A stretch of DNA of 64,000 nt from an uncultured delta proteobacterium (GTDB lineage Bacteria; Desulfobacterota; WTBG01; CAIYCZ01): positions 1-64,000 of the forward strand of contig CAWDOY010000053.1 in NCBI GenBank assembly GCA_963803975.1, read 5' to 3'. Numbering within the stretch: position 1 is the stretch's first letter; each line of letters opens with the position of its first letter. The notes under the pieces were generated by a model. The model worked only from the letters and a program-made list of their open reading frames with translations, was not told the origin of the DNA and made no database searches. Both the position numbers and the translations under genes were made by a program. Below, piece by piece: positions 8,015-25,824 of the stretch.

Positions 8015-10749
8015 TCAGCGGGAATTCGCAAAACTTAAAAAGCTCTCATCCTTCATTTCACGCCTCAATTTATTGATCCGCGCTTTCAGCCGGGCAGGGG
8101 ATGCCTGCTCAAGGTCAAAGAGAAAACAGCTTGCTTCATTGAGCAGAGACGAGGGTATTGATACTGATTTTGTGCTGAGGGACGAGAGCACAACGGGCAT
8201 GGCATTTTGCAGGAGCCTTACAGCGCGCGCCCGCAGCTGCGGGTTTTTCTTCAGCACCTTCCGTACGTCGCCTTCCGCCGCGTAGTAAAGAGCAGTCAGC
8301 CGGTTTCCCGGCAATGATTTTTTCAAAACCGCGTCTCTGAAGGCCCGCAGCACCGGGAGGTGTTTCCTGTTGGCGCTGTTTTTAAGAAGCTCTGTTGCAG
8401 CGCAGCCGCCGTCATCACCGGGACCCGTAGAAAGAATTATATCACGGGTAACCATTTCACCGGCATTGACCGTAATCCCGAAGAGCGTAGCGCTATTGTA
8501 GCCATCAGCTGCAATCTCGATATCATGCACACCGGCAGGCATCATTAATGAATAAAAGCCCTCGCTGCTGGCGCAGGAGCTTCCGCTGGAGGAAGACACT
8601 GCCGCGTTGTCGACCGTGCTCCCGGTATCTTGAGCAGTAATAGTACCGGAGAGCAAACCAGTGCCGGACGATGAGCACTTGAACATGCCGCTGGCAGTGC
8701 CCGCAAGAATAGTGGAAGAGGGAAGGTTCTGTAGCAGACCTTTTTGCTTAAAGCCGTCGGCAGCGCGCGCGGCAGCAGGCCCGCTGTTTACATCAAATAG
8801 TATATAGTCTGACAGCCCGGCACAGGTCCAGTAATTACCGCCGTCCAGGCTTACATAAATTCCATTCCGGTATAACGCTGCATAAACGATATCCTGATTT
8901 GCGGCGTCGATTTTTACACTGGTAACGGCAAATGCCGGCTTCCCCTCTTTTCCTCTCGGCAAACCCCTGGTTTTCTCCTCCCAGGTTATACCAGCGTCAG
9001 TACTTTTATAGATTCCCGTATAGCTGTTATTGCTGCCACCGCAGCCGATATAGAGGAGGTCAGGATTGGATGAAGAGATGGCAATACTGTTAACAATGAG
9101 CTGTTGAGACGAGGCAGGGCTAAAAGTTTTACCGCCGTCACTGCTTTTGTAAATATTCCCGGGAGCAACAGGAGCAAAGAAACTACCGGTGCCCGCAAAA
9201 ACAGTCTGCGGGTTTGCCGGATGGATCTTTACCGTATTGACGGGCACCGTGGTTTCCCAGAGCATGCTATACGTTGTGCCGCCGTCAGTGCTTTTTATGA
9301 CCTCACCTCTTTTACCTGAAGAGAAGGCAACGCCCGCACAGATTATATCCGGATTAGACTTTGAAATTGCTATGGAGCTGACTTTATGCCCGTCACTTTT
9401 ATCTGAGACATCGGTATAGGTCCAGGTAGCGCCATTGTCCGTACTTTTTCCCAGCGCCCAGTCGAATCCGGCAAAGAGGGTATTCCGTGTGCCGGGTGAA
9501 AGCTGACTGCATAGGCAATCGACTCATTGACCCGGGTCCATTGCGTGCCGCCTGTTTGCCGGTAAACACCGGACAGCGTTCCTGCAACAAGGGTAGCTGG
9601 CGCTCAACGGAGAGACATCAATGGCGAACACCTGGTTTGCTCTGATTCCTTCATTCCTGGGCTCCCAGGTTTGGGCTCCATCCGAGCTTTTAAATACCCC
9701 CCGATTCAGATCGCCGCCAAAGAGAATATCAGGATTGTCAGCGGGAGCAGCAAGGCAGAGGAACTCTCCCGGCCGGTCATAATAATTCCAGGAATCACCG
9801 CTGTCAGTACTTTTTGCCACGCTGTTCACCAGCCCGGCATAAATGGGGGTATGGATGAGCCCGGAGCTATACACAGGGCGCGACAGCCCGTTGTGTCAGT
9901 CACCCAGGACCATCCGGTGGCGGTATTGGTGCCGTCCTGTTTGCGCAGCACGCCATACCCGTCAGCAGAAAAAACAAGATTGGGTTCCGAGGGGTGCACG
10001 AGTATTTCATCAAGGAATGAAAAAGGATATACCTTACCGTCAGACCACTGACCCTTATTCCACGACCACCACTGGTTTCCGCCATCCATGGTCATGAAGA
10101 TTCTGCCTTCCGGTGAGAGGCCGGCCTTGCGTGATGTCGCCCATATTTCATCCGGCACGGCGGGATTGACATCGATATCCCAGATATTGAACGGCTGGTA
10201 TTCAAGCGGAAACGTGTTCTCCATTTTAAACCAGGTGTCGCCGCCATCGGTTGTTTTATAGAGGACTCCCAGTTCGTCAGTCCCGTTCGGCCCGCCCGTT
10301 CCCACGTACACGGTATCGCCGGTCACATCATGAGGATCAACCTTGACCGTGTAGCAGAACCTTCCTTCTTCGTTGGCGAAATAGAACGTTTTCCAGGTGA
10401 ACCCGTAATCAGAACTCACATCTACATAATGATTGTCGGCGACCCAGATTTTCTGCGGGTTATTGGGATCTATGTCAATGTCATATACTTCATAATTTCT
10501 GAACCACCCTGCATTCTTCGCCCCGATCAGCCAGCTTTCGCCGCCGTCTTCAGAGGCAAAGAAGCCGTCGCCGTTCCAGCTCCCGGCATACAGGTAGGTG
10601 CTGTCATAAGGATCGATGGCAATGCGGTAGATCTGGCCGCCATAGAGGCCGAGGTCATTCCACAGGGGAATTCCCTGTGCGTTTATATCAGGCATCGCGC
10701 ACGCGCAGAGCAGCACTGCGAGGATGAGTATCCATCGTAACTTTGTCAT
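8015..10749 (-). CDS. Secreted BNR/Asp-box beta-propeller protein with carboxypeptidase-regulatory-like and CFI-box-CTERM-like domains (several frameshifts)
   Basis: Signal peptide MTKLRWILILAVLLC; many (S/T)xDGGx(T/S)W Asp boxes across ORF pieces; C-terminal GCAATELL..LRAFRDAVL..G..LYY. Confidence 0.75.
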
Positions 10750-10791
10750 ACCCTGTTCCTCTTTCAGCAAACGCCGGGTTTAAAGAGGTTC

Positions 10792-11646
10792 TTATTGGGA
10801 GCCATAGCTGTGCAGCCCCGAGAGGAGAAAATTCACGCCGAGGAACGTGAACAGCACGGCAGCAAACCCGATGATTGAGAGTATCGCCGTCTTCCTCCCG
10901 TGCCAGCCGCGGGTCAGGCGGGCGTGGATAAATGCTGCATACATGAGCCAGGTGATGAGCGACCAGGTTTCCTTCGGGTCCCAGCTCCAGTAGCTCCCCC
11001 AGGCATAGTTTGCCCACACCGCGCCGGTGATGATGCCGATGGTCAGCAGCAGAAAGCCGATGGCTATGGTTTTATAGATAATGTCATCAAGAGATTCCAT
11101 GGACGGAAAGAGCTCGGACATATCCGCACCTGCGGGGACTTTTTCTTTAGCCTTTTTATACTTGACGAGATAGGTGATGCTTGAGCCAAAAGAGATGGCA
11201 AATGCAGAGTAGGAAAGAAAACAGGTCATCACATGGTAGGTGAGCCAGTTGCTTTGCAGCGCCGGCATCAGCGGCTCGATTTCATCCTGAATGTTGGGAG
11301 AAAGCGAGGCGTAGGCCATGGCAATGGAGATCAGGGGAAAGATAAACACTCCGAGCGCCTTGCTCTTGTAGCGATATTCCACGATAAGGTAAATAATAAC
11401 CGTTGTCCAGGAAAGGGACATAAGTGATTCATACAGATTTGAAAGAGGAATGTGGCCGTGTCCCAGCTGATATGATTCGTACCAGCGCATGCCCAGGGCG
11501 ACGGTGTGGACGACAAGGCCAAAAATGGCGATACCGGTAATTACCTGGCCAAATTTCCTGTTTCTGAAGAACAGGTAGGTGAAATAGGATACCATGCAGA
11601 TGAGATAGGTAAACGTAACAATGCCTAACAGCTTTGAACTGATCAT
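10792..11646 (-). CDS. ccsA: System II cytochrome c biogenesis protein CcsA/ResC (CcsB in some nomenclature)
   Basis: WWD motif GAVWANYAWGSYWSWDPKETWSLITW; LQSNWLTYH; GLHSY. Confidence 0.95.
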   Translation of the reverse strand: MISSKLLGIVTFTYLICMVSYFTYLFFRNRKFGQVITGIAIFGLVVHTVALGMRWYESYQLGHGHIPLSNLYESLMSLSWTTVIIYLIVEYRYKSKALGVFIFPLISIAMAYASLSPNIQDEIEPLMPALQSNWLTYHVMTCFLSYSAFAISFGSSITYLVKYKKAKEKVPAGADMSELFPSMESLDDIIYKTIAIGFLLLTIGIITGAVWANYAWGSYWSWDPKETWSLITWLMYAAFIHARLTRGWHGRKTAILSIIGFAAVLFTFLGVNFLLSGLHSYGSQ

Positions 11647-11948
11647 GCTTTTCCCCTTTATGCTTTCAATTAGTATCTAAATGTAACCACAGAGGACACC
11701 CGTCCTCCGAAGCATTTCTGCCTGTCCTCCGCACAAAGCGTGCTTTGGAAGGCGGGCGGAGGGTGGACTGAGAAATTTTATATTTATCACCGTGTTATAA
11801 AATAGTCCTCAGGAAGTTACTCTGTGCCCTTAGCGTAATTATTATATAACAAAAAAGCGTTTTATGCTTGTGTATTGAGAGCACAGAGGGTTTCCCTGCG
11901 TTCTCAATGGGTGCATCCCTTCTCTGTTTTTCATAAAACTTTTATCAT

Positions 11949-13343
11949 TCATGATCTCAAGGTTTTAAACAGCGTTTCAAATTCCCTGCTGAACGCGATC
12001 TGGTTTTTATTGGTTGAGCCGGCAAGCACGGCTTTGCACTCGCCGTCCTTCTCCTCCACTCTCAGCCAGATGCGGCGGTGGGAGGTGAAAAATGCGACAT
12101 AGATGCCGCCAATGAGCAGGATGCAGCCGAGCCACACGACCAATACCCCGGGGTCATGGGTTACCTGCAGGCCCGTATAATACCGGGGTTGGATATTTAC
12201 CAGCTGCAGGTCAAGCGGCTGATCGCCCTTGCCGTGGAAATCAGGAAATTTTGCAAATATCCATTTATTGAACTCTTCTTTCCCGCCCTTGAGGACCGTT
12301 ACCCGGACGGCAGGATTATTGAACTCCTGAGACCGTGAAACGGGTTTGCCGTTATTATCCATCGCAAAATCAGAGAGGAATTCATCTGCGCGCACAACAT
12401 AGTTTGTTCCCGCAATTGGTGCGCTGCTGCCCACATCCAGGGTCAGGTCCTGCTGTTTGCCCGAGTCTTTTAGTTTTACGCTGAGGTTAATCTTGCCCCC
12501 GCCATCCGGAGCACCACCGTAGCTTGACTGGTAAAAATAGATACCGCGGTAAACCAGCGGGTCGTTTACCTCGATGGTCTTGGTTAAAACTTCCCGGTTG
12601 TTTTCGAGCACCGTAAGGGTGCTTTTGTAGTCTTTGGGCCTTTGGGAGCCTTCATAAAAGGTGACTTCAAACTTGTCACAGCGTATGGCAAAGTCGAGAT
12701 TCCTGGTCTCGTTCGAGTTTTTCAGCTGCATCACATGCGCAGTCTGCCCTTCGGGGATCTGCATGTAGCCCTGATAGCCCAGCGATCCTGACATGGACCC
12801 CAGGATAATGATTATCAGGCCCAGATGCGTCAGATAGAACCCGAAACGGGTGTATCGGCCGCTTTCAGAAAAAAGATGCCGCCCGCCCTGATTTTGTGTG
12901 AGAGCAGGTTGGTTAAGATACTGCGCGATGACTGTTGCATACTGCTTTTCCTGTTCAGCGGAAAATTTTTTCAGAGTGAATTTTCTGACATTTGTCAGTC
13001 CCTGCAGCAGCTTGTCATCAAGCACCGTGTCCCCATGAAATATCGCACGCCAGACCCGCGGCAGCCGGTTAAGAGAACAGGCTGCGAGGTTTATGGTAAA
13101 GAGGGTCATCAGGGAGATAAACCACCACGAAGCAAACAGGTTCAGGAAACCCAGCGTGGAAAAGAGCCGGTACGTTGACGGGCTGTAGAGCTGCAGGTAG
13201 TGCTGGGGTGATTCATTCTGGGGGATGAGCGTGCCAATGACGCACACGCTGGACAGAATAATAAGCAAAATTATGGTGAGCTTGATGGAAACGAAAAAAT
13301 CCCTTATCCTCTGTAGCATGCTCTTCTTCTTTTTTGCTGTCAT
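11949..13343 (-). CDS. resB: System II cytochrome c biogenesis protein ResB/Ccs1
   Basis: IGTLIPQ, SWWF, THLGL, VNDPL.YRG.YFYQSSY, YTGLQVTHDPG. Confidence 0.92.
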   Translation of the reverse strand: MTAKKKKSMLQRIRDFFVSIKLTIILLIILSSVCVIGTLIPQNESPQHYLQLYSPSTYRLFSTLGFLNLFASWWFISLMTLFTINLAACSLNRLPRVWRAIFHGDTVLDDKLLQGLTNVRKFTLKKFSAEQEKQYATVIAQYLNQPALTQNQGGRHLFSESGRYTRFGFYLTHLGLIIIILGSMSGSLGYQGYMQIPEGQTAHVMQLKNSNETRNLDFAIRCDKFEVTFYEGSQRPKDYKSTLTVLENNREVLTKTIEVNDPLVYRGIYFYQSSYGGAPDGGGKINLSVKLKDSGKQQDLTLDVGSSAPIAGTNYVVRADEFLSDFAMDNNGKPVSRSQEFNNPAVRVTVLKGGKEEFNKWIFAKFPDFHGKGDQPLDLQLVNIQPRYYTGLQVTHDPGVLVVWLGCILLIGGIYVAFFTSHRRIWLRVEEKDGECKAVLAGSTNKNQIAFSREFETLFKTLRS

Positions 13344-13544: not shown

Positions 13545-14075
13545 ATGAAAACCATGAAAAAATGGGTTATATATTTAATTCTTGCTCTTCTTCTGTTTGG
13601 CCTGCCGTTTATAGCCTATACTGCAGAAGAGTACGCGGGGGCAACGAAATGCAAGCTGTGCCACATTAAAATATATAAATCATGGCAGCAGACCAAGCAT
13701 GGCACGGCATTTGATGTGCTGAGTCCGGGCAATAAAGCTGAAGAGAAAAAGAAAGCCGGTCTTGACCCGCAGAAAGATTATACCGCTGATGCCAAGTGCC
13801 TTGAATGCCACACCACCGGCAACAATGCGCAGTTCCCCGGGATTCAGTGTGAAGCGTGCCACGGGGCGGGCAAGGGGTATACCAGTATCAGGGTAATGAA
13901 CAAGAAGCTGTGGAAAGAAGATCCTAAAAAACAGGAGCAGCTGGCTTTAGCTGCGGGTCTTATCATTAAACCTGACGAAAACCTGTGCAAGAAATGTCAT
14001 AACGAAAAAAGTCCCACCTTCAAACCGTTTAATTTTGCTGAGCGCTACAAAGAGGTATCGCATAAAACTGAATAA
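13545..14075 (+). CDS. Periplasmic tetraheme cytochrome c (c554-like family)
   Basis: Signal peptide; CKLCH, CLECH, CEACH, CKKCH; YAGATKC..CH...Y.SW.QTKH pattern; divergent from resB. Confidence 0.88.
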   Translation: MKTMKKWVIYLILALLLFGLPFIAYTAEEYAGATKCKLCHIKIYKSWQQTKHGTAFDVLSPGNKAEEKKKAGLDPQKDYTADAKCLECHTTGNNAQFPGIQCEACHGAGKGYTSIRVMNKKLWKEDPKKQEQLALAAGLIIKPDENLCKKCHNEKSPTFKPFNFAERYKEVSHKTE

Positions 14076-14087
14076 CTGAGTTTACTG

Positions 14088-14705
14088 TTAGTCGTAGTTA
14101 TTATAATCTTCGGAGTCTTGCGCAGGAGCGGGACCTGGTGCAAGAGCTTTATACTCTTTTAATTTCTCCTGTAAGGAATCATCAATAGACTTCAGTTTAT
14201 CTTTAAACATGCGCACCATATATAATTTCAACAACATCACTTCATATTCTTTGCCCTTTTTATCCTCAGCGCTTAGTTGTGATTTGCTTTGAGCGTCTCC
14301 TGCTGCCGCAAGCAATTTATCTAATTCTTTTTGCCCCTGTTCCTTTTCCTGAGTTAATGCCCGAATCTGCTTCTCTATCGACGCTTTTTTTTCTATCTTT
14401 TCCGGGTCTTTCTCTTCCTCTTCTCTTTCAGCCCCTTCGCCAACGATCTCTTCTGCTGCACCATGTTCTACTGCCCTATCGCTATGCCCCGGCATGGTCG
14501 CAGGTGCTGGGATAGGTTTTTTTGCAATGCCCTGCATGTCCGGTGCCGGCATTGTATCCTGTTGTGGCGCAGCTTTTTTCTGCGAAGGTGCACCTTTTCC
14601 CGGTTGCGAACTCTTTGAAGATAAGGATTTTATAATTGACGCTGCTATTAATACAATACCAATGACGCACGCAACCAGGATTATTCTGTTTCGCTGATAT
14701 TTCAT
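14088..14705 (-). CDS. Hypothetical membrane-anchored coiled-coil protein
   Basis: N-terminal TM helix, Pro/Ala linker, K/E-rich helical C-terminus. Confidence 0.6.
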   Translation of the reverse strand: MKYQRNRIILVACVIGIVLIAASIIKSLSSKSSQPGKGAPSQKKAAPQQDTMPAPDMQGIAKKPIPAPATMPGHSDRAVEHGAAEEIVGEGAEREEEEKDPEKIEKKASIEKQIRALTQEKEQGQKELDKLLAAAGDAQSKSQLSAEDKKGKEYEVMLLKLYMVRMFKDKLKSIDDSLQEKLKEYKALAPGPAPAQDSEDYNNYD

Positions 14706-14788
14706 GGTGCTTGAGATTGAATGTTGGGTAGAGAGGATGTGATATTTGATAGCAGATTTATAAATGTATGGCAAGCCTTAGAATAAAC

Positions 14789-15014: not shown

Positions 15015-17927
15015 TTACCGTATCGCAAGCGTACCCGTGCATATCTGGGTTCCGGTTAACACGGTTACTATCTTATTACCCTTACCAATGAGGTACTGAG
15101 GCGGCACCATTGCCAGCACCTCGATTGCAGTAGGTGTGATGAGAGTAGTTCTAATGTAACGGAAGCCCTGGATACTTATTGCGCTGGTCTCATCAAATGC
15201 ACCGCCTTCTGTCTGAATTTTGATCCGTGCGAACAGCGGGATAAGAAATCCGGATCTGACGGATTCCGGATCAACCGTCAGCGAGCAGGACGGCGGCGGA
15301 TTCGGTATCGTTGTAGTTGTGGTTATACCGCCTGAACAGCTTGAGTGACAGGTAAGGCATGAACCGCCGTGCTGCACTATTAGATTACATTTGCCCGGAG
15401 AGGTCAGGGGGTGGCATTTTACGCAGTTCCCGGGGCTCACATTGCCTGCCTGCGGAGTGCCGTCATGACATTGGGAGCAGTTGCCGTGTCCTGAGCGTGC
15501 ATGCAGGTCGCTCACTGTATGGCATCCCGTGCAGTCATCAATATGTCCATACGCTGGCGGGGCAGTAGTGGTGGAGGTCGACTGATTTGGTATAGTGGTC
15601 GTTGTAACACCGCCTGAACAGTTTGTGTGACAGGTGAGGCATGAGCTGCCGTGATTAGTTATTAAATTACACTTACCCGCAGCACCCAGAGGATGACACA
15701 CGATACACTTGTCAGCCTCTACGTTGCCTTTTGCAGGAGTTCCTGCATGGCACGATGCACAGGTTTGGTGCCCTGGATGGTCATGTAAATCACTCGAAAC
15801 ATGACAGGTGAGACAGATACTGAAATGATCGCTGGGAGGCAGCACCGTGGTGGTAGAAGATCCTGCGCCGGTTGTGGTGGTTGTTGATCCAATGGTTGTG
15901 GTGGTACTCGGTGCGCACATAGCGGGAGTGTGGCAGGTGTTGCATGAGCTGCCGTGGAACGCTACTAAATTACACGTACCGGGTTTGCCAGTGGGGTGGC
16001 AGCCTGCGCACTTGCCAACATCCGCATTACCAGCTGTCGCTGGAGTTCCCGTATGACAGTAGGTGCAATTGTTGTGTGCTGGCTTAGCATGTATATCACT
16101 CACTTCATGACAGGTGAGACACAGGGCATTGTGTCCGCTTGGAGCTGAAGCAGAAGTGGTGGTAGAAGATCCTGAACCGGTTGTGGTGGTTGTTGATCCA
16201 ATGGTTGTGGTGGTACTCGGTGCGCACATAGCGGGAGTGTGGCAGGTGATGCATGTGCTGCCGTGGAAAGCCACCAGGTTACACTTGCCGGGGTTGCCCA
16301 CCGGGTGGCATGAAACACACTTGCCATCATCAACATTACCTGCCTGCGGCGGCGTGCCGGTATGGCAATAGGTGCAATTATTGTGCGCTGTTTGCGCATG
16401 TAAATCACTCACTTCATGACAGGTGAGACATTTGCTGATGTGGCCGGTTGTGCTTATAGCAGTGCTGGTGGTAGAAGACCCTGGACCGGCTGTGGTAGTG
16501 GTACTCGGTGCGCACATAGCGGGAGTGTGGCAGGTGATGCATGTGCTGCCGTGGAAAGCCACCAAGTTACACTTGCCGGGGTTGCCCACCGGGTGGCATG
16601 AAACACACTTGCCATCATCAACATTACCTGCCTGCGGCGGCGTGCCGGTATGGCAATAGGTGCAATTATTGTGCGCTGTTTGTGCATGTAAATCATTCAC
16701 GTAATGGCAGGTGAGACACTGGTCGGTGTGTCCGCTTGGGGCGGAAGCAGTAGTGGTAGTAGACCCACCTGGAATGCTGGTTGTTGTTCCTCCGCCTGAG
16801 CTGGTTGTGGTGCTGCCGCCACCGATGCTGGTTGTGGTACTGCCCCCGCCGGTACTGGTTGTAGTATTTGAGATAGTAGAAGTGGTAGTGGTAATCGGCG
16901 CTCCGCCGGAACAGCTCTTGTGGCAATCAAGACAGCTTTGGGTTACAAGCTGGGCATGCACGTCCACGATCTTACAGTCGCCGGTGCCGCTGAGCGGGTG
17001 GCATGCAGAGCACTTGTCAGCCGTCACATTTTTACCCGGGGTGCCGTTTGGATGACAGCTGCTGCAGGTATTGTGTCCGGACCGGCTGTGTATGCGCAGG
17101 CTGTTTGTGGAACTGAAATCCGTGGGATGGCATACCACGCAGCTGCTCATATGATTATTTGTGGTGTTGCTATCACAGTCAACATGGCAGGTGAGACAAT
17201 TTGCTCCATGAAGAACAGGTGTGGGTAGGTTTATTAGGTTACATACTCCCGGGCTGCTGCTGGGATGGCAGACGACGCACTTGTCCGGCTTTACATTGCC
17301 TGGCCCGGGGGAGCCTGCGTGGCAAGCGCTGCAGTTGCTTTGATGGGTGGTAACACCGTGTAATGAGCTTGCGGGATGACAGGTAATGCAGGTTTCAATG
17401 TGTGGAACAGGTTCCTGGATCACAGATGAGGTAGTGGTGCTTAATACGCCCACGGTTATGGTGCCATCATTACCTGTGACAGTAATAACACCCCCGGTGG
17501 CGGTCGACGCACTGGGGTCGTTGCTCAGCTGGTAGCTGGTAGCTGGAGCGCTGCAGTTTATCGCAAAGGTGACATTAGCGACAACTCCGTTGCCGATGTT
17601 GTTCACATTTGCTGAGGAGAAAATACCCACCCGATACAGTCCTGGTGATACAATGTTAGAGGCTGCTGATTTCCCTGCTGCTGTTCCTGCCGGCCCTACT
17701 GCGACACTTACCGGGGTTAGAAATTCGCTGTTGTACCCGATATCCGTAGCAACACCAGCAACCGGGGCTATGCCGTCGTTGGTCAGGGTTACGGAGATGA
17801 TAACCTGTGCGCACTGGTTACCTGAAGCAGTGCCAAGGTCAACAGTAGGTGTTGCCTGTGCAGCACCTGCCAGAAAAAGGGACAAAAGCGCTGCAAACAT
17901 TGTTATCCTGCCATGAGCTGTTTTCAT
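15015..17927 (-). CDS. Secreted cohesin-domain multiheme cytochrome c, 7 tetraheme modules (28 CxxCH) with Thr-rich linkers
   Basis: Signal peptide; cohesin-like domain (VATDIGYN..GPAGTAAGK..PGLYRVGI..GVVANVTF); 28 CxxCH counted in 7 repeats; beta-rich C-terminal domain. Confidence 0.88.
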   Translation of the reverse strand: MKTAHGRITMFAALLSLFLAGAAQATPTVDLGTASGNQCAQVIISVTLTNDGIAPVAGVATDIGYNSEFLTPVSVAVGPAGTAAGKSAASNIVSPGLYRVGIFSSANVNNIGNGVVANVTFAINCSAPATSYQLSNDPSASTATGGVITVTGNDGTITVGVLSTTTSSVIQEPVPHIETCITCHPASSLHGVTTHQSNCSACHAGSPGPGNVKPDKCVVCHPSSSPGVCNLINLPTPVLHGANCLTCHVDCDSNTTNNHMSSCVVCHPTDFSSTNSLRIHSRSGHNTCSSCHPNGTPGKNVTADKCSACHPLSGTGDCKIVDVHAQLVTQSCLDCHKSCSGGAPITTTTSTISNTTTSTGGGSTTTSIGGGSTTTSSGGGTTTSIPGGSTTTTASAPSGHTDQCLTCHYVNDLHAQTAHNNCTYCHTGTPPQAGNVDDGKCVSCHPVGNPGKCNLVAFHGSTCITCHTPAMCAPSTTTTAGPGSSTTSTAISTTGHISKCLTCHEVSDLHAQTAHNNCTYCHTGTPPQAGNVDDGKCVSCHPVGNPGKCNLVAFHGSTCITCHTPAMCAPSTTTTIGSTTTTTGSGSSTTTSASAPSGHNALCLTCHEVSDIHAKPAHNNCTYCHTGTPATAGNADVGKCAGCHPTGKPGTCNLVAFHGSSCNTCHTPAMCAPSTTTTIGSTTTTTGAGSSTTTVLPPSDHFSICLTCHVSSDLHDHPGHQTCASCHAGTPAKGNVEADKCIVCHPLGAAGKCNLITNHGSSCLTCHTNCSGGVTTTTIPNQSTSTTTAPPAYGHIDDCTGCHTVSDLHARSGHGNCSQCHDGTPQAGNVSPGNCVKCHPLTSPGKCNLIVQHGGSCLTCHSSCSGGITTTTTIPNPPPSCSLTVDPESVRSGFLIPLFARIKIQTEGGAFDETSAISIQGFRYIRTTLITPTAIEVLAMVPPQYLIGKGNKIVTVLTGTQICTGTLAIR

Positions 17928-17994: not shown

Positions 17995-19215
17995 TTATTG
18001 TGTCTTTTGATCCAGCGCCCAGACAGCCATGTTCACTGTCAGCCCGTTTTCTTTAGTATCTGTGGTGTCGCCGGTGGTTACCATCACATCGTAGTGACCC
18101 TGGACATTGGGTTTGACTGCCACCAGGGCAATCATGGTGTCGCCCGCGGCCAGTGTTGCCATGGGACGGATATCTCCTGACGGGTTAAAGCTCAATCGAG
18201 AGGACATTTTCAACCCACCCGTATCGCTGCGAATGACCAGAAGATGGAGTCGCTGCCGCCAGCGGGAACTGGTTATGGATAGTGGTGTAATGCTGGAAAT
18301 CCCGCCGGCAGGGGGTGCAGCAACGCTTACCAGTGCCCTGGCCCCTATACCATTGGCATAATCAACAGTCAGTATCGTATCAGTTACCTCTGCTCCGGCA
18401 GTATTTTCACCTGCCACGTAATTGCCGTTTTCATCAATAGTGCTGCCGATGGAACTTTCCACTGACCAGTGCAGCTGTGGCGGGGCACATGCAGCATCGT
18501 TTAGTTGCGCGGCAAAATTTACTGCCTGCTTAGCCATAACGTTGACAGCAGCGGGATTGATAATAAGCGAACAGAAACCCGGAGCAGCAGCAGTGGTAGT
18601 AGTGGTCAAGGCTGCGGTTGTAGTTGCAGATGATATGGTCGTAGTTGTTGTTGCCGGCACGGTCGTGGTTGATACATTGGCTGGTATAGTCGTTGAGTTT
18701 GGACTGTCATCAATTTCTGAGGTAGTGGTGCTGGAGGTGACTTCTATAATGCCAGCGCCACCGCCCGTTGCGACAGGAGACCCCTGAGGCGTTGAGCAGC
18801 TCGGATTATTACCCAGTTGATAGTTTCCTGCGGGCGCACCGCTGTTAACCCTGAAAATGACATTGGCAACCAGGCCGTCTGGTATGGGAGTCAAATTGGA
18901 GGTTGAGAGAACACCGACGCGATATAATCCCGGTTCCACGATATTCTTGACAACCTCTTTGCCTGCTGCTGAGCCTGCCGGCCCTATGGTGGCATCTATC
19001 GGAGTTAGGTGCGCACTGTCATAGGTAATGTCAGTGCTGGCGCCTGCAACCACGGTTCCCGTTTCATTAGTCAGAAATATTGGGATCGTAACCTCCTCGC
19101 CGGGACGCACACTGTCAGAGCCCATATCAAGATCAGGAGCTGCCCAGGCAGCGCCGCATAAGGAGATTGTCAGGAGAAGAGCTATAACTGATGTACTGCC
19201 AAAAACTGATTTCAC
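17995..19215 (-). CDS. Secreted cohesin-domain protein with Thr-rich linker and Ig-like domains, no hemes
   Basis: Signal peptide; PGEEVTIPIFL..STDITYD..GPAGSAAGK..PGLYRVGV..DGLVANVIFRV; poly-Thr linker. Confidence 0.8.
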   Translation of the reverse strand: MKSVFGSTSVIALLLTISLCGAAWAAPDLDMGSDSVRPGEEVTIPIFLTNETGTVVAGASTDITYDSAHLTPIDATIGPAGSAAGKEVVKNIVEPGLYRVGVLSTSNLTPIPDGLVANVIFRVNSGAPAGNYQLGNNPSCSTPQGSPVATGGGAGIIEVTSSTTTSEIDDSPNSTTIPANVSTTTVPATTTTTISSATTTAALTTTTTAAAPGFCSLIINPAAVNVMAKQAVNFAAQLNDAACAPPQLHWSVESSIGSTIDENGNYVAGENTAGAEVTDTILTVDYANGIGARALVSVAAPPAGGISSITPLSITSSRWRQRLHLLVIRSDTGGLKMSSRLSFNPSGDIRPMATLAAGDTMIALVAVKPNVQGHYDVMVTTGDTTDTKENGLTVNMAVWALDQKTQ

Positions 19216-19272: not shown

Positions 19273-19311
19273 AAAAAAGGAGGTGGTAGTGGTTGCCCCC
19301 TACCACCTCCT
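19273..19311 (-). terminator. Intrinsic terminator-like hairpin inside the cohesin gene cluster
   Basis: Minus strand AGGAGGTGGTAG-loop-CTACCACCTCCT followed by a T run. Confidence 0.75.
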
Positions 19312-19345: not shown

Positions 19346-22157
19346 CTACCTCCATGCCGGAGCAGCTCCGCCACTCAGATCAATTGTTGAGTCAACTAAC
19401 ACTTGCGCAAGATACAGCGCGTTGTGAATGTAACCACACGGCTCCTTCTTGCTGAACTGGTAGTTGTATGCTGCCTTCAACAGTTTCGCATCAAATGTCG
19501 TGTAGCTGGCTTCACCAGTATCATGAACATTATTGTTGTTGGCATCAACAAACCAGTACGGGTACGCAGCCCCATCATACACGATGAATTTTCCCAGCGT
19601 GCCCGCAGAGTACGCGCGAATCTGCGTATACAGTGCATCTTCCAGCCCTGCGATTTCACTCTGTATCGACTCGGTCACATTGCCGTCACTGTCAAAGTCA
19701 GTGTTGCCGAATCCTGTGGCCGGGCGAATGTTAGCGAATTCAAAGGTGCCGGTCTGCGACACATCACCAGCGTGACATACGCAGTTGTTGGGGTTAGGCT
19801 TGGTCACCCGGTGCGACGCGTACGACGCATTCAGGCCGTCACTGCCCATATGACACTGCACGCAGTTATTAAACTTGCCGCCGTGAGCAGTGAACGGGTT
19901 CTGACCGGCATAGGTCTTGCCCGCGTACTCGTAGCCGCCCTGCACCTGCGTGCCAAACAGCGATGCTGCTGCTGCGTAATAGTGCACATTGGTGAAGGAG
20001 TACGGGCCGGCGGGGCCTGGTGCTACCTTGGTATCTATGCTCTTCTTGGACTCGCGGCCCTGGTGACAGAGCAGACACAGGTTGCTGTCGTCAGTTGCCC
20101 CGGCACCACCCATATTGGCTTTTAGCCCTGAGGGGAAGGTTACATCTTTCACTGCCAGGCGCGGTGCATTCGTGTCAGTTACACTGCTGTGGCAGTTGGC
20201 GCACAGCATGCCGTTAGCCGGTTCTTCCTGGATGTTGACATTGTTGGTCAGGAAGAACGGGATGCCGGCGCCTGCATGACACTTAGCGCATGAACCCGGA
20301 GGTCCCGGCAGTGCCGGAGCAGTTGCTACATCCCAGTGTCTCCAGGCCTCGGATGAACCGTCAAAGTGTCCTTCATCCACCCGGTTGCAGCCGGCAAGGC
20401 TCACTTCCAATGAGGGTACCAGGGTAGAGAGCTTAATGTTGAGATCCTCTATGGAGTCATACAGCAGCTCGATGATATACTTTGCCATTGTGTGCATAGG
20501 AACCAGGATCCTTGATCGATAACTGGTAGTTGTAGGTTGCCTTGAGCAGCCGGGCTGTATAGGCATTGTACCGGGTGACTTCAGCTGGATCAGCTACACC
20601 ATTGCCATTATCATCAATAAACCAGTAGGGGTTTGCGGCCGGATTGTACACAATGCCTTTACCTGACACGTTTGTAGCATATGCCTGGATAGCCTGGTAC
20701 AGCTTCACTCTGAGGCCGTCTGCTTCATAGTAGAGACCTTCAGTTACGTTGCCGTCACCGTCATAGTCTTCCAGGGAGCCCTTCATGCGGATATTCTTCA
20801 GGGCTGCCTTGTCTGTTGCGCCGGTATGACAGGTAACGCACTTGTCATACTTGAGCTCAAGAGAATGCGCGTCATGACATTTTACGCACGTATCATAGCC
20901 TTCCACGTGGGCAAACTTGGCATCATAGACCTTGCCCGCATACTGGTAGCCGCCCTTTGCCTCGTTGCCGTACAGGGTTGCTGCTGCGGGAAAGTAGTGG
21001 ACGTTCCTGAAAGATGAACCACTATCCACTGCATCAGGGTCTCCTGCCAGTAGCGGTCTGCCGGCAATGTATGCATTCACGCTGTCTGTTGATTGCCGAC
21101 CCTGGTGGCATACCATGCAGCGCGCTTCCGGACCCAGACCCGTGAGCGTAAGCTTGGGAATCGGGGGCACTGCAGTGGCATCACCGGTGGACTCGAGCAC
21201 CACGCTGGTCAGCTCACTTGCCTTCTGGTTATGACATGCCTCGCAGGAGACGACCGTGCCGATCGGTGCCGGGTTATCTACCACACCGGCTGCGGTGCCG
21301 TCTGCGCCCAGGTAGTCAAGATAGCCCGGGGTGCTGTGGCATTTGGCACAGCCGACAGGAACCGCTGGGGTACAGGTTGTGGCTGGGGGTACAGGAGTAC
21401 ATTCATTCCAGTCATTGAAGGCCTCAGCAGTAGTGTCTGCATGGCCGGATTCCTTCCATAGCTCTTCCTGGGGTATCACGTCAACCGTGGGGCAGGCACA
21501 TTCCTTGGTCTCCAGGAAGCAGTTGATGGCCTTGATCACATCATCAATCGAAACCTTGTTGTCTGCGGTTGGATCACCTAAGGGATCGACCGGGTCTAAC
21601 CCCAGAAACATTCTCACTTCCATCAGTATTTCGTTAAGGGCGGTTACGCCGTCCAGGTTAAAGTCAGCGGTCTTGGCAGTAAAGAAACTGCCTGACACGC
21701 AGGCGATCCCCAACGCGTTTCCTGCAGGGTCAGATGCGCTGCACAGGTTGGTCAGGTCTACGCCGCCTACCGGGTTCTTCTTCAGCGTGAAATTTACATA
21801 GGCCACTACGCCATCGCCGATGGGGGTGGTGTTGCCTTCGGTAAATACGCCAACACGCACTACGCCGGGTGACAGCAGGTTGAATGAAACAGTTTTACCC
21901 ACTGCTGAGCCGGCCGGCCCGATGGTTGCGCCGGTGAAATCTAAATAACTGTCATTAAACGTGATGTCCGTGCTCACACCGGCAATATTGGGTGCTGCAC
22001 CGGCAGTGTTGACCAGAGTAATCGGCATGACCGCTGCTGCGCCAAAAGAAGCGCACGGCAGCGCGATATCTGCTAACTTTAATTCTGCTGCAGTTGCCGC
22101 ACTGCATAAAGGCAGGATGAAAAGACATACAAGAAATAGGGTTTTAAAATACTTCAT
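19346..22157 (-). CDS. Secreted cohesin + dockerin-like + multiheme cytochrome c (two pentaheme repeats; 9 CxxCH + 1 CxCH); 1-nt frameshift at about 20482
   Basis: Joining ORFs restores DPGSYAHNGKYIIELLYDS; cohesin N-terminus; duplicated Ca-loop DFNLDG/DPTADNKVSIDD; CHQGRxS and HY.AAA.L(Y/F)G motifs repeated. Confidence 0.85.
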
Positions 22158-22728: not shown

Positions 22729-23705
22729 ATGTCTCGCAATCGAATTATTTTTTTTGTTGTGTTTATCATCGCGATATTTACGGGTGTCTATTTTTTAATA
22801 GACCTTTTCGGGCAGCATGCTCTGAACAGACTGTATTCACCCACCAAGCGGATAAGCCTTGAAAAAGGTTATAAGGAAAATATACAAAAAACAATATTCG
22901 TTAACGACCCCCATGAACCTGAGATCCGTATTGCAATTGCACCCATCATGTCTCCTGAAAAATCCCTTCCGATATATAAGGATCTCATCAATTACATGGG
23001 CAAAGTTCTTAACAGGCAGCCGGTTCTGATGCAGAAATCGAGTTATTCTGAAGTAAATGATTTATTGCATTATGATGGCTGCGATGTTGGCTTTGTGTGT
23101 ACCTATCCCTATGTGCTCGGCGAACGTGATTACGGCCTGAAACTGCTGGTTATCCCGCGCATTCGACGGGAAAATAACCATGCACGGTCATTCATCATAG
23201 TACCTGCAGACAGTAAAGCCCAGTCGCTGCTGGATCTGCGGGGAAAGCGTTTTGCTTCCTGCGATATTATTTCGCAAACCGGCTGGATATATCCGGCGAT
23301 CTGGCTTCTGAAGCATGGGGAAAATCCAAAGGAGTTCTTTGGAGAACATATTATCTGCGGAAGCCATGACCGGGCTGTCGGGGCGGTGGCAGACACAGTT
23401 TGCTGATGGGGCTGCTGTTCAAAACCTGGTGTATGAAAAAATGGTTGCCGATGACCCATCTCTGGCCGATAAAGTCCGCATTATCATGAAATCTGAAGAA
23501 TACGGTATAGCCCCCAATAGTTGCAAACCCGCGCATGGATCCGGTGTTGCTGGAGACACTCCGCAAAGCGTTGCTCTCCATGCACGAATCAGCTGAAGGG
23601 AGGGCAATCCTTAACCGGATGGGCATCGAACGCTATGAGGTCCCTGAAAGCAGCCTGTATGACAACTCGCGGGGTGATGCTGAGCTATGGAATCCCAGGT
23701 CGTAA
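22729..23705 (+). CDS. PhnD/AioX-like periplasmic substrate-binding protein (frameshifted)
   Basis: IRIAIAPIMSP, GFVCTYPYV, DLRGKRFA..D..SQTGW, GSHDRAV; no ABC permease/ATPase adjacent. Confidence 0.8.
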
Positions 23706-25168
23706 TTTTCTTAAATAGTATTTTAAATCGGGCGCGCCGGGCACTGAATCAGCTTTTTAACAGCTTTGTTTCCGTGCCGATTTTTATAAAAATTCTCGGA
23801 GTGGGGATGTTCGTTGTGGTACTGTTTGGGGCGATCGTGCTCTATCGTACGCGCATCAGCGTGGCACGGACGTTCTACGGCATGCTTGAAAATGAAACAA
23901 AGACCCTGGCGCTTATGGTTGCAGCCAATTTAGAGCGGCCACTGGCAGTTAGAGATTATTTAAGCGCACAGTTAGTTTTAAATGATGCCAAACAGATTTA
24001 CCCGGACATTCTCTACGGGATCGTGGAAGACAAAGCAAACCGGATTTTCGCCCATACCTTTGAAGGCACTGTGCCGCCTGACCTGGTGGGACTTCTCCCT
24101 CCGGTGACGGGTCTTAATTCCAGTAATAAACCTCATCTGGAAATTTTCAACAATGCAGAGGGGTTTATTATGGAGTCATCAGTACCAATTATCAAGGGGG
24201 AACCGGTGCGTCTCAGGATAGGGACGAGTGACCGGCTGATTAGACAGCAGCTTTACGATCTGACCCGGCTGTTGCTTGTCTCTACGATATTCTGCGCGAT
24301 CCTCGGGTGTGGTCTGGCGCTTATATTAACCTACCTCATAACCCGTCCGGTTAAAAATCTTTTAGCAGCTACAAACAGGATCAGCCAGGGCGATTTCACT
24401 TCAAGATCACATGTCTTCTGGAATGATGAGATCGGCAAGTTTGCTGTTGCATTTAATCGCATGGCGGACAATCTGCAGCAATACCGCAGGGAGGTTGAAG
24501 AAAAGGAAGCTGTCCGCCAGGCCCTGCTTGAAAAGGTCATTTTTATCCAGGAAGAAGAGCGCAGAAGGATAGCGCAGGACCTGCACGACCAGCTGGGGCA
24601 GTCCCTGTCGGTGCATGCTTCTGGATATCCGGCAGCCGGACAGCGGCACACAGTGCTTCTGTGAAAAACACCCCATGATCGAGAAACGGCTAGTCCGAAC
24701 TGATCGATGAAGTCCGCCAGCTGGCCTGGGGCATGCACCCGTCTATTCTTGACGATTACGGACTTGACAAGGCTCTTGAACGCTATGTCAACAACTATTT
24801 CTAAAGCAACCAGAATTGCTATTGATTATCAGTGCCTGTGCCCCCGGCAACTGCCGCGCCTTCCCATCAGAACAGAAGTTGCCCTGTACCGTATTGCGCA
24901 GGAGGCAATTACCAACATCGTGCGTCATGCCAACACCAAACAGGCAAGCGTGGTTTTTATGCGCAATGAACATGAAACAATTCTGCTGGTGGAAGATGGG
25001 GGAAAGGGGTTTGACACAGCAGCTCATTCTGACCGGGAGTTTACCCATATGGGACTGGTCGGCATGAGCGAACGAACGTCAATGCTGAGAGGCGAATTTA
25101 CTGTTGAATCAGTGCCCGGCATGGGCACCACGATACGGGTAAAAATTCCCCAGGAGATGCTTTCATGA
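23687..25168 (+). CDS. HAMP-domain sensor histidine kinase, HisKA_3 type (frameshifted)
   Basis: 2 TM + HAMP (DEIGKFAVAFNRM); EERRRIAQDLHDQLGQSL; YRIAQEAITNIVRHA, EDGGKGF, GLVGM.ER. Confidence 0.88.
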
Positions 25169-25824
25169 CAATCAGAATAATGCTTGCAGATGATCATGCG
25201 GTTTTTCGTAGCGGGCTGCGCGCCCTGCTCGAAAAAGAGGCAGAGTTTCATGTCGTCGCTGAAGCAGGGGATGGCCATGAAACGGTTAAAAAGGCATGCA
25301 GTGAAGCTATTGATGTGCTCGTTCTTGATATCAATATGCCGGGAATGACGGGGCCCATGATTGCGGAGGAAGTCCTGCAAAAATGTCCCCGGCTGGCGAT
25401 CGTAATTTTGACGATGCATGACGATGAATATTACCTGCAGGAACTTTTTAAAATAGGCGTGCGGGGCTTTGTGCTCAAGAAATCCACCGGTACGGACCTG
25501 CTGCAGGCAATCCGTGCCGTAGCCCGCGGTGAGCAGTATGTTGACTCCTCCCTGACCAAATGTGTGCTTTCGCGTTTTATAGGAACCGCGCACGGCAAAC
25601 AGTCCGCCCCCCAGACCAGAAAAGACCTCCTTACCCCGCGTGAACAGAAGATCTGCCAGCTGCTGGCTTACGGGAACACCAACAGCGAAATTGCCGAAAA
25701 GCTTTTCATTTCCGAACGGACGGTTGAAACCCATCGCTCCAATATTTATGCCAAGCTCGGGCTGAAAAATCGGGTAGAGCTGGTGCGCTTTGCCATTGAC
25801 AACGGCCTGATGCTTCTGACCTGA
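25165..25824 (+). CDS. NarL/LuxR-family response regulator
   Basis: LADDH, DINMPG receiver; LTPRE...IAEKLFISERTVETHRSNIYAKL HTH. Confidence 0.95.
   Translation: MTIRIMLADDHAVFRSGLRALLEKEAEFHVVAEAGDGHETVKKACSEAIDVLVLDINMPGMTGPMIAEEVLQKCPRLAIVILTMHDDEYYLQELFKIGVRGFVLKKSTGTDLLQAIRAVARGEQYVDSSLTKCVLSRFIGTAHGKQSAPQTRKDLLTPREQKICQLLAYGNTNSEIAEKLFISERTVETHRSNIYAKLGLKNRVELVRFAIDNGLMLLT

Follow-up and report, generated by a model that had tools for sequence, protein, structure and literature searches.

A cohesin–dockerin cassette at the N-terminus of a predicted exported decaheme cytochrome from an uncultured delta proteobacterium

What purpose might a cohesin and a dockerin-like module serve when they stand in tandem at the N-terminus of a decaheme cytochrome, and could they join such a protein to copies of itself? 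Cohesins and dockerins outside cellulosomes have been described for years without assigned roles (PMC9705933, PMC9012536, PMC10553843, PMC5244752). We have analysed a window of DNA (the whole 64,000-nt stretch; coordinates refer to its forward strand and residue numbers to the 936-aa protein) in which the domains of such a cytochrome, its encoding by a single gene and the swap at its N-terminus are directly established, as is the presence in the genome of four cohesins and three dockerins. The reading that we favour, and to which we give about an even chance, is that the tandem is a docking cassette standing in place of a lipid anchor, which would give heterodimers and short capped chains.

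Gene structure and host

The gene and its export signal are as follows.

19346..22157, minus strand: cohesin–dockerin–decaheme cytochrome gene, 936 aa, in which a spurious base splits the frame into ORFs of 566 and 406 aa
22086..22157, minus strand: predicted cleavable signal peptide, residues 1-24, without a lipobox at the cleavage site, as read from the sequence

The ORF at 22157-20457 (minus strand) contains the start of the gene, and that at 20566-19346 (minus strand) continues it in another frame. The extra base responsible, at 20480-20484, is absent from the contigs covering this site in four of four independent DNA runs, and also from an RNA-library contig of X19, and the cytochrome homologues are intact at 923-940 aa. 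Since the base is missing from the DNA runs and the homologues are unbroken, the cytochrome is one gene split by an assembly error; the candidate explanations of two genes or of programmed frameshifting at 20480 are ruled out by the same DNA runs. The corrected gene is 2811 nt (937 codons) long and encodes, in order, a signal peptide, a cohesin, a dockerin-like module, a Cys-rich tail and two pentaheme repeats.

Close relatives come from sediment and freshwater metagenomes, and the host is described as a sediment bacterium; its genome encodes an MtrB-type porin and secretins which, together with an LPS kinase, indicate that it is a diderm. Its PPDK shows 54-66 % identity to sequences from many different phyla. 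RNA-library contigs, from two of four runs of one study, include parts of the cytochrome gene and of the genes for the 406-aa and 28-heme proteins described below, although such contigs give neither transcription nor levels.

The cohesin domain

21678..22085, minus strand: cohesin, residues 25-160, with family-conserved D64, K88 and R101 (Pfam, model and fold searches)

The N-terminal module is a real cohesin. It passes the cut-off of Pfam family PF00963 narrowly (24.9 bits against 24.1; 28 bits in a whole-genome search), its AlphaFold2 model has a pLDDT of 90.7 and the predicted nine-stranded beta-sandwich of the cohesin fold, and three fold searches have only cohesins at the top. The best Foldseek match is 2XDH of Archaeoglobus fulgidus (E 1.3e-10), the fold match (VIA) to 2JH2 has Z 16.7 and rmsd 2.0 with 125 residues aligned, and the top 20 matches in a search of 48,161 chains are all cohesins.

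Cohesins bind dockerins on the 8-3-6-5 face, the outward positions of which we inferred from strand alternation. Of 16 such positions the three cohesins of the window share eight, namely G60, D64, K88, N93, R101, G103, S140 and S142. Others, such as positions 136 and 138, differ, being T/L in the cytochrome cohesin and G/N and S/D in its neighbours, and specificity may therefore not be shared. Within a comparison set picked with the tandem profile, D64, K88 and R101 are kept in 85, 94 and 86 % of 87 cohesins that precede a dockerin and in 76, 83 and 76 % of 67 cohesins in dockerin-free proteins. As these residues are kept as well as in stand-alone cohesins, the cytochrome cohesin seems to be more than an inert spacer.

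The dockerin-like module

21666..21677, minus strand: linker of four residues that connects the final cohesin strand to calcium loop 1 (model and tandem alignment)
21510..21665, minus strand: degenerate dockerin homologue, residues 165-216, with two loop+helix repeats (HMM, alignment and model)
21486..21509, minus strand: Cys-rich tail with C220 and C222 (alignment of heme-type rows)

The preliminary description of this DNA had placed a cohesin and two EF-hand-like repeats together on the cytochrome at 21510..22088, and both its quoted sequence and its coordinates are correct; the cohesin is confirmed by Pfam, model and fold, and the repeats, four residues further on, are identified by HMM as a dockerin homologue. 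The linker is 4-8 residues long in 85 of 85 rows of the tandem alignment. Judged by its sequence, the second module is a conserved, degenerate homologue of dockerins and not a textbook dockerin. It has two tandem repeats of calcium loop and helix, the helices lying at 174-184 and 204-214 in the AlphaFold2 model. Ligand positions 1, 3, 5, 9 and 12 are D, N, D, A and E in loop 1, where the Ala at position 9 is non-canonical, and D, T, D, S and D in loop 2, where the Thr at position 3 is non-canonical, so that both loops depart from the family consensus. Repeat position 14 is hydrophobic in both repeats and Gln in about 80 % of the family.

The window copy alone matches no Pfam family at E<=1, and the PF00404 cut-off is passed neither there nor in the genome search, while six of 11 aligned sequences match Dockerin_1. 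When the dockerin alignment is compared with a Pfam-positive relative by hhalign, the match is 96 % with E 3.3e-9. An HMM built from 79 non-heme relatives, with the cytochrome's own lineage left out of the training, gives the window module 40 bits (iE 6.6e-10) among 38,238 genome ORFs; it has just three matches in the genome, the next best score being 9.9 bits, and in a shuffle control the real sequence scores 46.5 against 9.6 for the best of 1000 shuffles. Solved dockerins do not appear among the listed fold matches of the tandem because the cohesin filled the lists, and profile searches match solved dockerins weakly and interspersed with EF-hand proteins, 5NRK_B being the best dockerin (E 0.017).

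Comparison of coding sequences indicates that the module is under purifying selection, with dN/dS values of 0.00-0.47 in 19 of 19 printed pairs (the pairs are non-independent, and L016 and L017 have identical values); one pair is 100 % identical at dS 0.42. The top covarying pair within the dockerin is position 14 of the two repeats (z 7.2). Between cohesin and dockerin, 85 tandems yield no covariation signal above 20 re-paired controls (maximum z 5.4 against 3.6-5.6), and face positions are not enriched among the top 50 inter-domain pairs (6 against 6.2 expected). Cysteines C213, C220 and C222 are invariant in seven of seven heme-type rows, and cysteine C35 is present in five of the five that cover its position; the tail motif is found in five of 84 tandems. 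Disulfides among these four residues could clasp the dockerin to the cohesin.

The heme core

20405..21464, minus strand: pentaheme repeat 1, with five CxxCH and five further conserved His, and an OcwA/NrfA-like predicted fold
19349..20404, minus strand: pentaheme repeat 2, with four CxxCH and one CxCH (in homologue P0020 the two repeats share 33 % identity)

The cytochrome has nine CxxCH motifs and one CxCH, and its heme core contains calcium-type loops separate from those of the dockerin. The predicted model of one repeat of P0020 matches OcwA (6I5B) with Z 10.8, rmsd 3.3 and 22 % identity over 211 aligned residues, and NrfA with Z 9.9 over 255 residues; both scores fall short of about 13, under which matches between helical folds call for caution, and the match is a moderate one. 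No solved structure matches the heme core by sequence or profile. Nanowire cytochromes are absent from the 50 listed fold matches, which does not imply a different fold; the model used in these searches, of 940 residues, is above reliable size. The core may resemble the C-terminal half of Geobacter OmcB, and the databases label its single-repeat homologues 'polyheme membrane-associated cytochrome C'.

There are ten further conserved His for the ten heme motifs (by count), and the five His that accompany each five motifs are kept in 51-53 of 53 rows. This count points to a carrier of electrons in which no heme is open for catalysis and all of the hemes are possibly bis-His. OcwA of Thermincola potens (PDB 6I5B) is described as a cell-surface terminal reductase with two open hemes (PMC6703420), and the protein described here would differ from it in this respect and does differ, as from NrfA, in the duplication of the pentaheme unit.

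Homologues of the heme core form a family with 4937 or more members. Among the best 120 core homologues, five have the cohesin–dockerin cassette, and the other 115 include 80 with a lipoprotein-type start by a looser pattern (56 by a strict one), the remaining 35 including fragments and plain signal peptides. The core is present in eight of 40 related genomes, where nine of nine examined genes (by eye, and not every copy) begin with a signal peptide and a Cys. The cassette occupies the slot that holds the lipoprotein signal in most relatives of the core, and a third paralogue in the genome has yet another N-terminal domain.

Occurrence of the cassette

A search of 1.84 billion representatives with a profile of the tandem gave 3196 matches. 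In the best 150 of these, a cohesin is directly followed by a dockerin in 84, the tandem is a C-terminal tag in 38, and a cohesin–dockerin–cohesin arrangement follows other domains in 26, with the remaining tandems otherwise arranged. Only three of the 84 tandem carriers have heme motifs, and the tandem is a generic, common cassette found mostly on non-heme proteins. Three relatives (P0111, P0138 and P0189) consist, by eye, of a signal peptide, a cohesin and a dockerin and nothing else. The module is patchily distributed: just one of 40 close relatives has a cohesin match, a weak one, and a match of any kind is seen in seven of 400 genomes from the phylum. The fusion to hemes is seen in 11 of 18 metagenome loci, seven of the 11 having extra hemes N-terminal to the cohesin, and in our searches it is confined to one narrow lineage.

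Neighbouring genes and partner inventory

19273..19311, minus strand: terminator-like hairpin and U-tract, separating the cytochrome gene from those for the cohesin-only proteins
17995..19215, minus strand: 406-aa secreted-type candidate partner with a cohesin, a Thr-rich linker and two predicted Ig-like domains (atlas scores <0.9, a lead only)
15015..17927, minus strand: 970-aa candidate partner with a cohesin, 28 CxxCH and a C-terminal Ig/TIG-like domain (domain and motif counts)
10792..13343, minus strand: pair of genes for System II cytochrome c maturation, one ResB-like and one CcsA-like, adjacent to the cluster (domain search)

The 406-aa protein has neither dockerin nor heme; the 970-aa protein, in which the 28 CxxCH form seven Thr-linked four-heme units, likewise lacks a dockerin. 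The hairpin (-26.2 kcal/mol, z -6.9, 0 of 200 shuffles) was missed by a simple terminator scanner and is kept in loci L009 and L012, in which cohesin-only genes also follow the cytochrome gene; most other loci are too short for synteny.

The genome is 98 % complete and encodes four cohesins (on the window cytochrome, its C52 paralogue, the 406-aa protein and the 28-heme protein) and three dockerins (on the window cytochrome, the C52 paralogue and a 206-aa FN3-dockerin protein on contig C35). The three dockerins are of one subtype, with a hydrophobic position 14 in both repeats. The C52 paralogue is frameshift-ridden and has an extra N-terminal heme unit; its cohesin is 90 % identical to that of the window cytochrome, and the gene that follows it is TetR-like and not a cohesin gene.

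The cohesin-only partners have no transmembrane helix and no lipid signal, and a surface anchor is therefore missing. A crude hydropathy test finds a C-terminal hydrophobic helix in none of 149 cohesin-bearing relatives. The 406-aa copy of the C-terminal Ig/TIG domain is matched at E 0.08 when it is left out of the profile, and the suggestion that this domain is a shared anchor of the cohesin-only proteins is unproven. What the docking model set out below chiefly lacks is a recognisable membrane anchor.

Comparison with known systems

Amy4, an enzyme of the Ruminococcus bromii amylosome, resembles the cytochrome in having one cohesin and one dockerin on a single chain; the Amy4 dockerin is described as binding the cohesin of Amy4 itself as well as cohesins on other proteins, and multimers have been proposed (PMC4611034). 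Amy4 is an amylase from a Gram-positive gut bacterium with a sortase-anchored scaffoldin (PMC4611034), whereas the protein here has a decaheme cargo and no recognisable anchor, comes from a diderm, has modules that abut at its N-terminus, and has binding that is predicted. In Ruminococcus flavefaciens the dockerin of ScaH is reported to recognise its own cohesin, ScaH being described as a variable-length spacer, and the one-cohesin scaffoldin ScaC is described as a specificity adaptor (PMC5301203, PMC12484212). Both have a cohesin and a dockerin on one chain, although, as described, they are without redox cargo and belong to a true cellulosome, in which dockerin proteins number in the hundreds, as opposed to three in the present genome.

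The cassette appears by analogy to be like Amy4 or ScaH in design, having the cohesin and dockerin on one chain that mark the self-associating type, and it does not belong to a cellulosome: in place of a multi-cohesin scaffoldin and dockerin-bearing carbohydrate enzymes there are four single-cohesin proteins and three dockerins, none of them on a glycoside hydrolase. The cohesin–dockerin systems of A. fulgidus, ANME and syntrophic sulfate reducers are non-cellulosomal and described as lacking cellulases, and for ANME a role of cohesins and dockerins in multiheme cytochrome adhesion has only been speculated upon (PMC9705933, PMC9012536, PMC10553843, PMC5244752). The accounts of them that we consulted describe no fusion of a cohesin and a dockerin to a multiheme cytochrome, and the main text of PMC11492766 mentions neither cohesin nor dockerin. 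Neither the cassette itself nor self-recognition is new, both being already known; the cassette here is a variant on a decaheme cytochrome, a fusion not found in the literature that we consulted, although the supplementary domain tables for ANME and sulfate-reducing bacteria could hold earlier cases.

A model for docking

We propose that the cohesin–dockerin pair is the attachment module of the predicted exported cytochrome. After Sec export, heme attachment by the adjacent System II pair and passage of the outer membrane, the dockerin would plug, in a calcium-dependent manner, into the cohesin of another molecule, leaving the cohesin of the cytochrome itself available as one more socket. The model supposes one binding specificity common to the cohesins and dockerins of the genome, and a rigid, disulfide-clasped tandem unable to bind itself in cis. 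Heterodimers and short linear chains would result, each chain beginning with a cohesin-only protein and terminated by a free cohesin or by the FN3-dockerin. Most probably the 406-aa and 28-heme cohesin proteins are what the cytochrome docks on, with short chains as the product; on the 28-heme string it would add a terminal electron-transfer unit of OcwA-like type to a modular wire outside the cell. The genome is a small closed system of four cohesins and three dockerins with redox cargo and with the cassette in the lipid-anchor slot; if docking does occur, it would represent a new way of mounting and joining extracellular cytochromes, and bioelectrochemical engineering would gain a part ready to be plugged in.

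Alternative explanations and possible self-polymerisation

A rather unlikely alternative is that the cytochrome is a strict adaptor that never chains, its dockerin binding just the cohesin-only neighbours and its own cohesin serving as a buttress like an X-module or binding only the FN3-dockerin. The tandem is fixed, with a linker of 4-8 residues, and is usually a C-terminal tag among the best 150 relatives, as X-dockerin dyads are; the differences at face positions 136/138 point the same way, and ScaC is a published one-cohesin adaptor, as described in PMC5301203 and PMC12484212. Against this, D64, K88 and R101 are no less well kept in cohesins that precede a dockerin than in those of dockerin-free proteins, and the FN3-dockerin is of the same subtype as that of the cytochrome. 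We consider it quite improbable that the assembly is instead closed, with two or three copies binding reciprocally, or one chain binding itself, in a defined dimer or ring with no socket left over. On geometric grounds, small rings could form from a rigid tandem that has both partners, and OcwA, the nearest fold, is reported to be part dimer (PMC6703420). Such closure would give no role to the two cohesin-only genes or to the FN3-dockerin, and the four-residue linker is probably too short for binding in cis. That the dockerin no longer binds cohesins, and is decaying or kept as a structural spacer, is scarcely credible; it would suit the lack of a Pfam match and the non-canonical residues in both loops, but dN/dS is below 0.5 in every pair compared, the identical pair at dS 0.42 included, which largely rules out a vestigial module, and recognition position 14 covaries symmetrically.

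Four cohesins with the same predicted binding face and three dockerins of one subtype make dockerin–cohesin self-binding in trans plausible, and Amy4 and ScaH are precedents for it. The preliminary description had gone further, envisaging a head-to-tail heme filament which the cohesin-only proteins would cap or branch. Chaining itself is possible, given the short linker, the conserved face, the selected dockerin and the precedents of Amy4 and ScaH; a stack of hemes does not follow, as both modules lie at one end of the protein, and a chain would thus have a cohesin–dockerin backbone with the heme cores as side groups. The cohesin-only proteins could cap such a chain, and branching by them is ruled out because they have a single cohesin apiece and lack a dockerin (unless two cohesins can share one dockerin).

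It is unlikely that the cytochrome forms a long filament, conducting by way of contacts from one heme core to the next. The short linker and intact cohesin face would allow it, the self-recognition reported for Amy4 and ScaH is a precedent, the proteins reduced to signal peptide, cohesin and dockerin are suggestive, and hemes flank the cassette in the seven loci with extra N-terminal hemes. However, most core homologues are of lipoprotein type without a cassette, the heme cores would be side groups, and by count no heme obviously needs a ligand from a neighbour. For conduction, hemes of adjoining subunits have to come within about 14 Å of each other. In a simple chain-length model with equal affinities, which ignores the FN3-dockerin and the C52 paralogue, chains average 1.5 cytochromes at equal amounts and 6 at ten-fold excess, and about 100 cytochromes would need a roughly 200-fold excess over each capping protein. 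The conserved terminator-like hairpin after the gene could favour the cytochrome excess that longer chains need. OmcS, OmcE and OmcZ are multiheme nanowire cytochromes with heme domains stacked along the axis; the protein here is likewise multiheme and predicted to be extracellular, with polymerisation proposed, although in any polymer it is an N-terminal cassette without hemes that would join the subunits. If long chains do form they would be a new class of cytochrome polymer. We also view as doubtful a scheme of extracellular electron wires in which the decaheme and 14-heme cytochromes chain head to tail via their own cassettes, the 28-heme string or an Ig stalk starting the chain, the FN3-dockerin stopping it and the mRNA hairpin setting its length through subunit ratios; if true, this would be a calcium-dependent, length-controlled polymerisation of cytochromes, unlike that of heme-stacked nanowires.

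A contig scan with the tandem alignment confirmed none of 606 pattern matches. A split form of the cassette occurs in five loci, three of them near-identical, in which a dockerin-ended gene adjoins a cohesin gene, and we note that genome G231 has one cohesin match and six dockerin matches.

Modular variation in the cohesin-dockerin family

Further features of the window and of other contigs of the source genome (G000) are as follows.

Window 8015-10770 (-), BNR/sortilin-like propeller ORFs
Window 13545-14774, tetraheme c554-like gene (+) and 228-aa membrane-anchored-type ORF (-)
Window 15015-17927 (-), cohesin followed by 28 CxxCH motifs in seven near-identical four-heme units separated by Thr-rich linkers
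Window 15015-15290 and 17995-18300 (-), Ig/TIG-like domain with an aromatic/basic loop
Window about 19783-19772 (-), tenth heme motif of the decaheme cytochrome, CxCH, in the second pentaheme repeat
Window 22729-25824 (+), two-component set, divergent, upstream of the cytochrome gene
C3:299405-302089, C29:5432-6601 and C57:46415-48112, further sites of the Ig/TIG-like domain with the aromatic/basic loop
C19:13189-33718, large multiheme cluster
C20:38147-40625, decaheme ORF adjoining an MtrB/PioB-type porin

The counterpart of the 28-heme gene at locus L012 has a single four-heme unit located N-terminal to the cohesin, and the module order has therefore been shuffled. Three homologues of 209-244 aa (P0111, P0138 and P0189) consist of a signal peptide, a cohesin and a dockerin and nothing else, and are thus the simplest objects in the family for testing chain formation. 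At five loci in other organisms (L020, L021, L022, L023 and L025) the two domains lie on neighbouring genes, the first encoding a secreted Ig-type protein with a C-terminal dockerin of the cytochrome's family, and the second, directly after it, a cohesin of the cytochrome's family without a dockerin. Several secreted-type G000 proteins contain the Ig/TIG-like domain, either at their end or internally, and it is a candidate surface-attachment domain.

The tenth heme motif is CxxCH in 44 of 53 aligned homologues, CxCH in eight and CxxxxCH in one, with an invariant His; the CxCH form is a trait of the window cytochrome's lineage. The C19 cluster includes the third decaheme-core paralogue of the genome, which has an N-terminal domain of another type and lacks both cohesin and dockerin. 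The C20 pair is likely to be a porin-cytochrome conduit. Single-base indels are frequent in the G000 assembly (L001 49-3002 and other G000 loci) and the C52 paralogue is split into several ORFs, so that a gene of this genome can be overlooked, or appear as several, when ORFs are counted.

Flanking genes

The two-component set, apparently frameshifted, comprises a phosphonate-binding-like sensor domain, a HAMP/HisKA_3 kinase and a LuxR-type regulator; similar sensor domains are found in thiosulfate/tetrathionate sensors. The c554-like gene and the 228-aa ORF, which matched no family, sit between the cohesin and maturation genes. One propeller ORF has a CFI-box-CTERM match below threshold (31.3 bits, cut-off 40).
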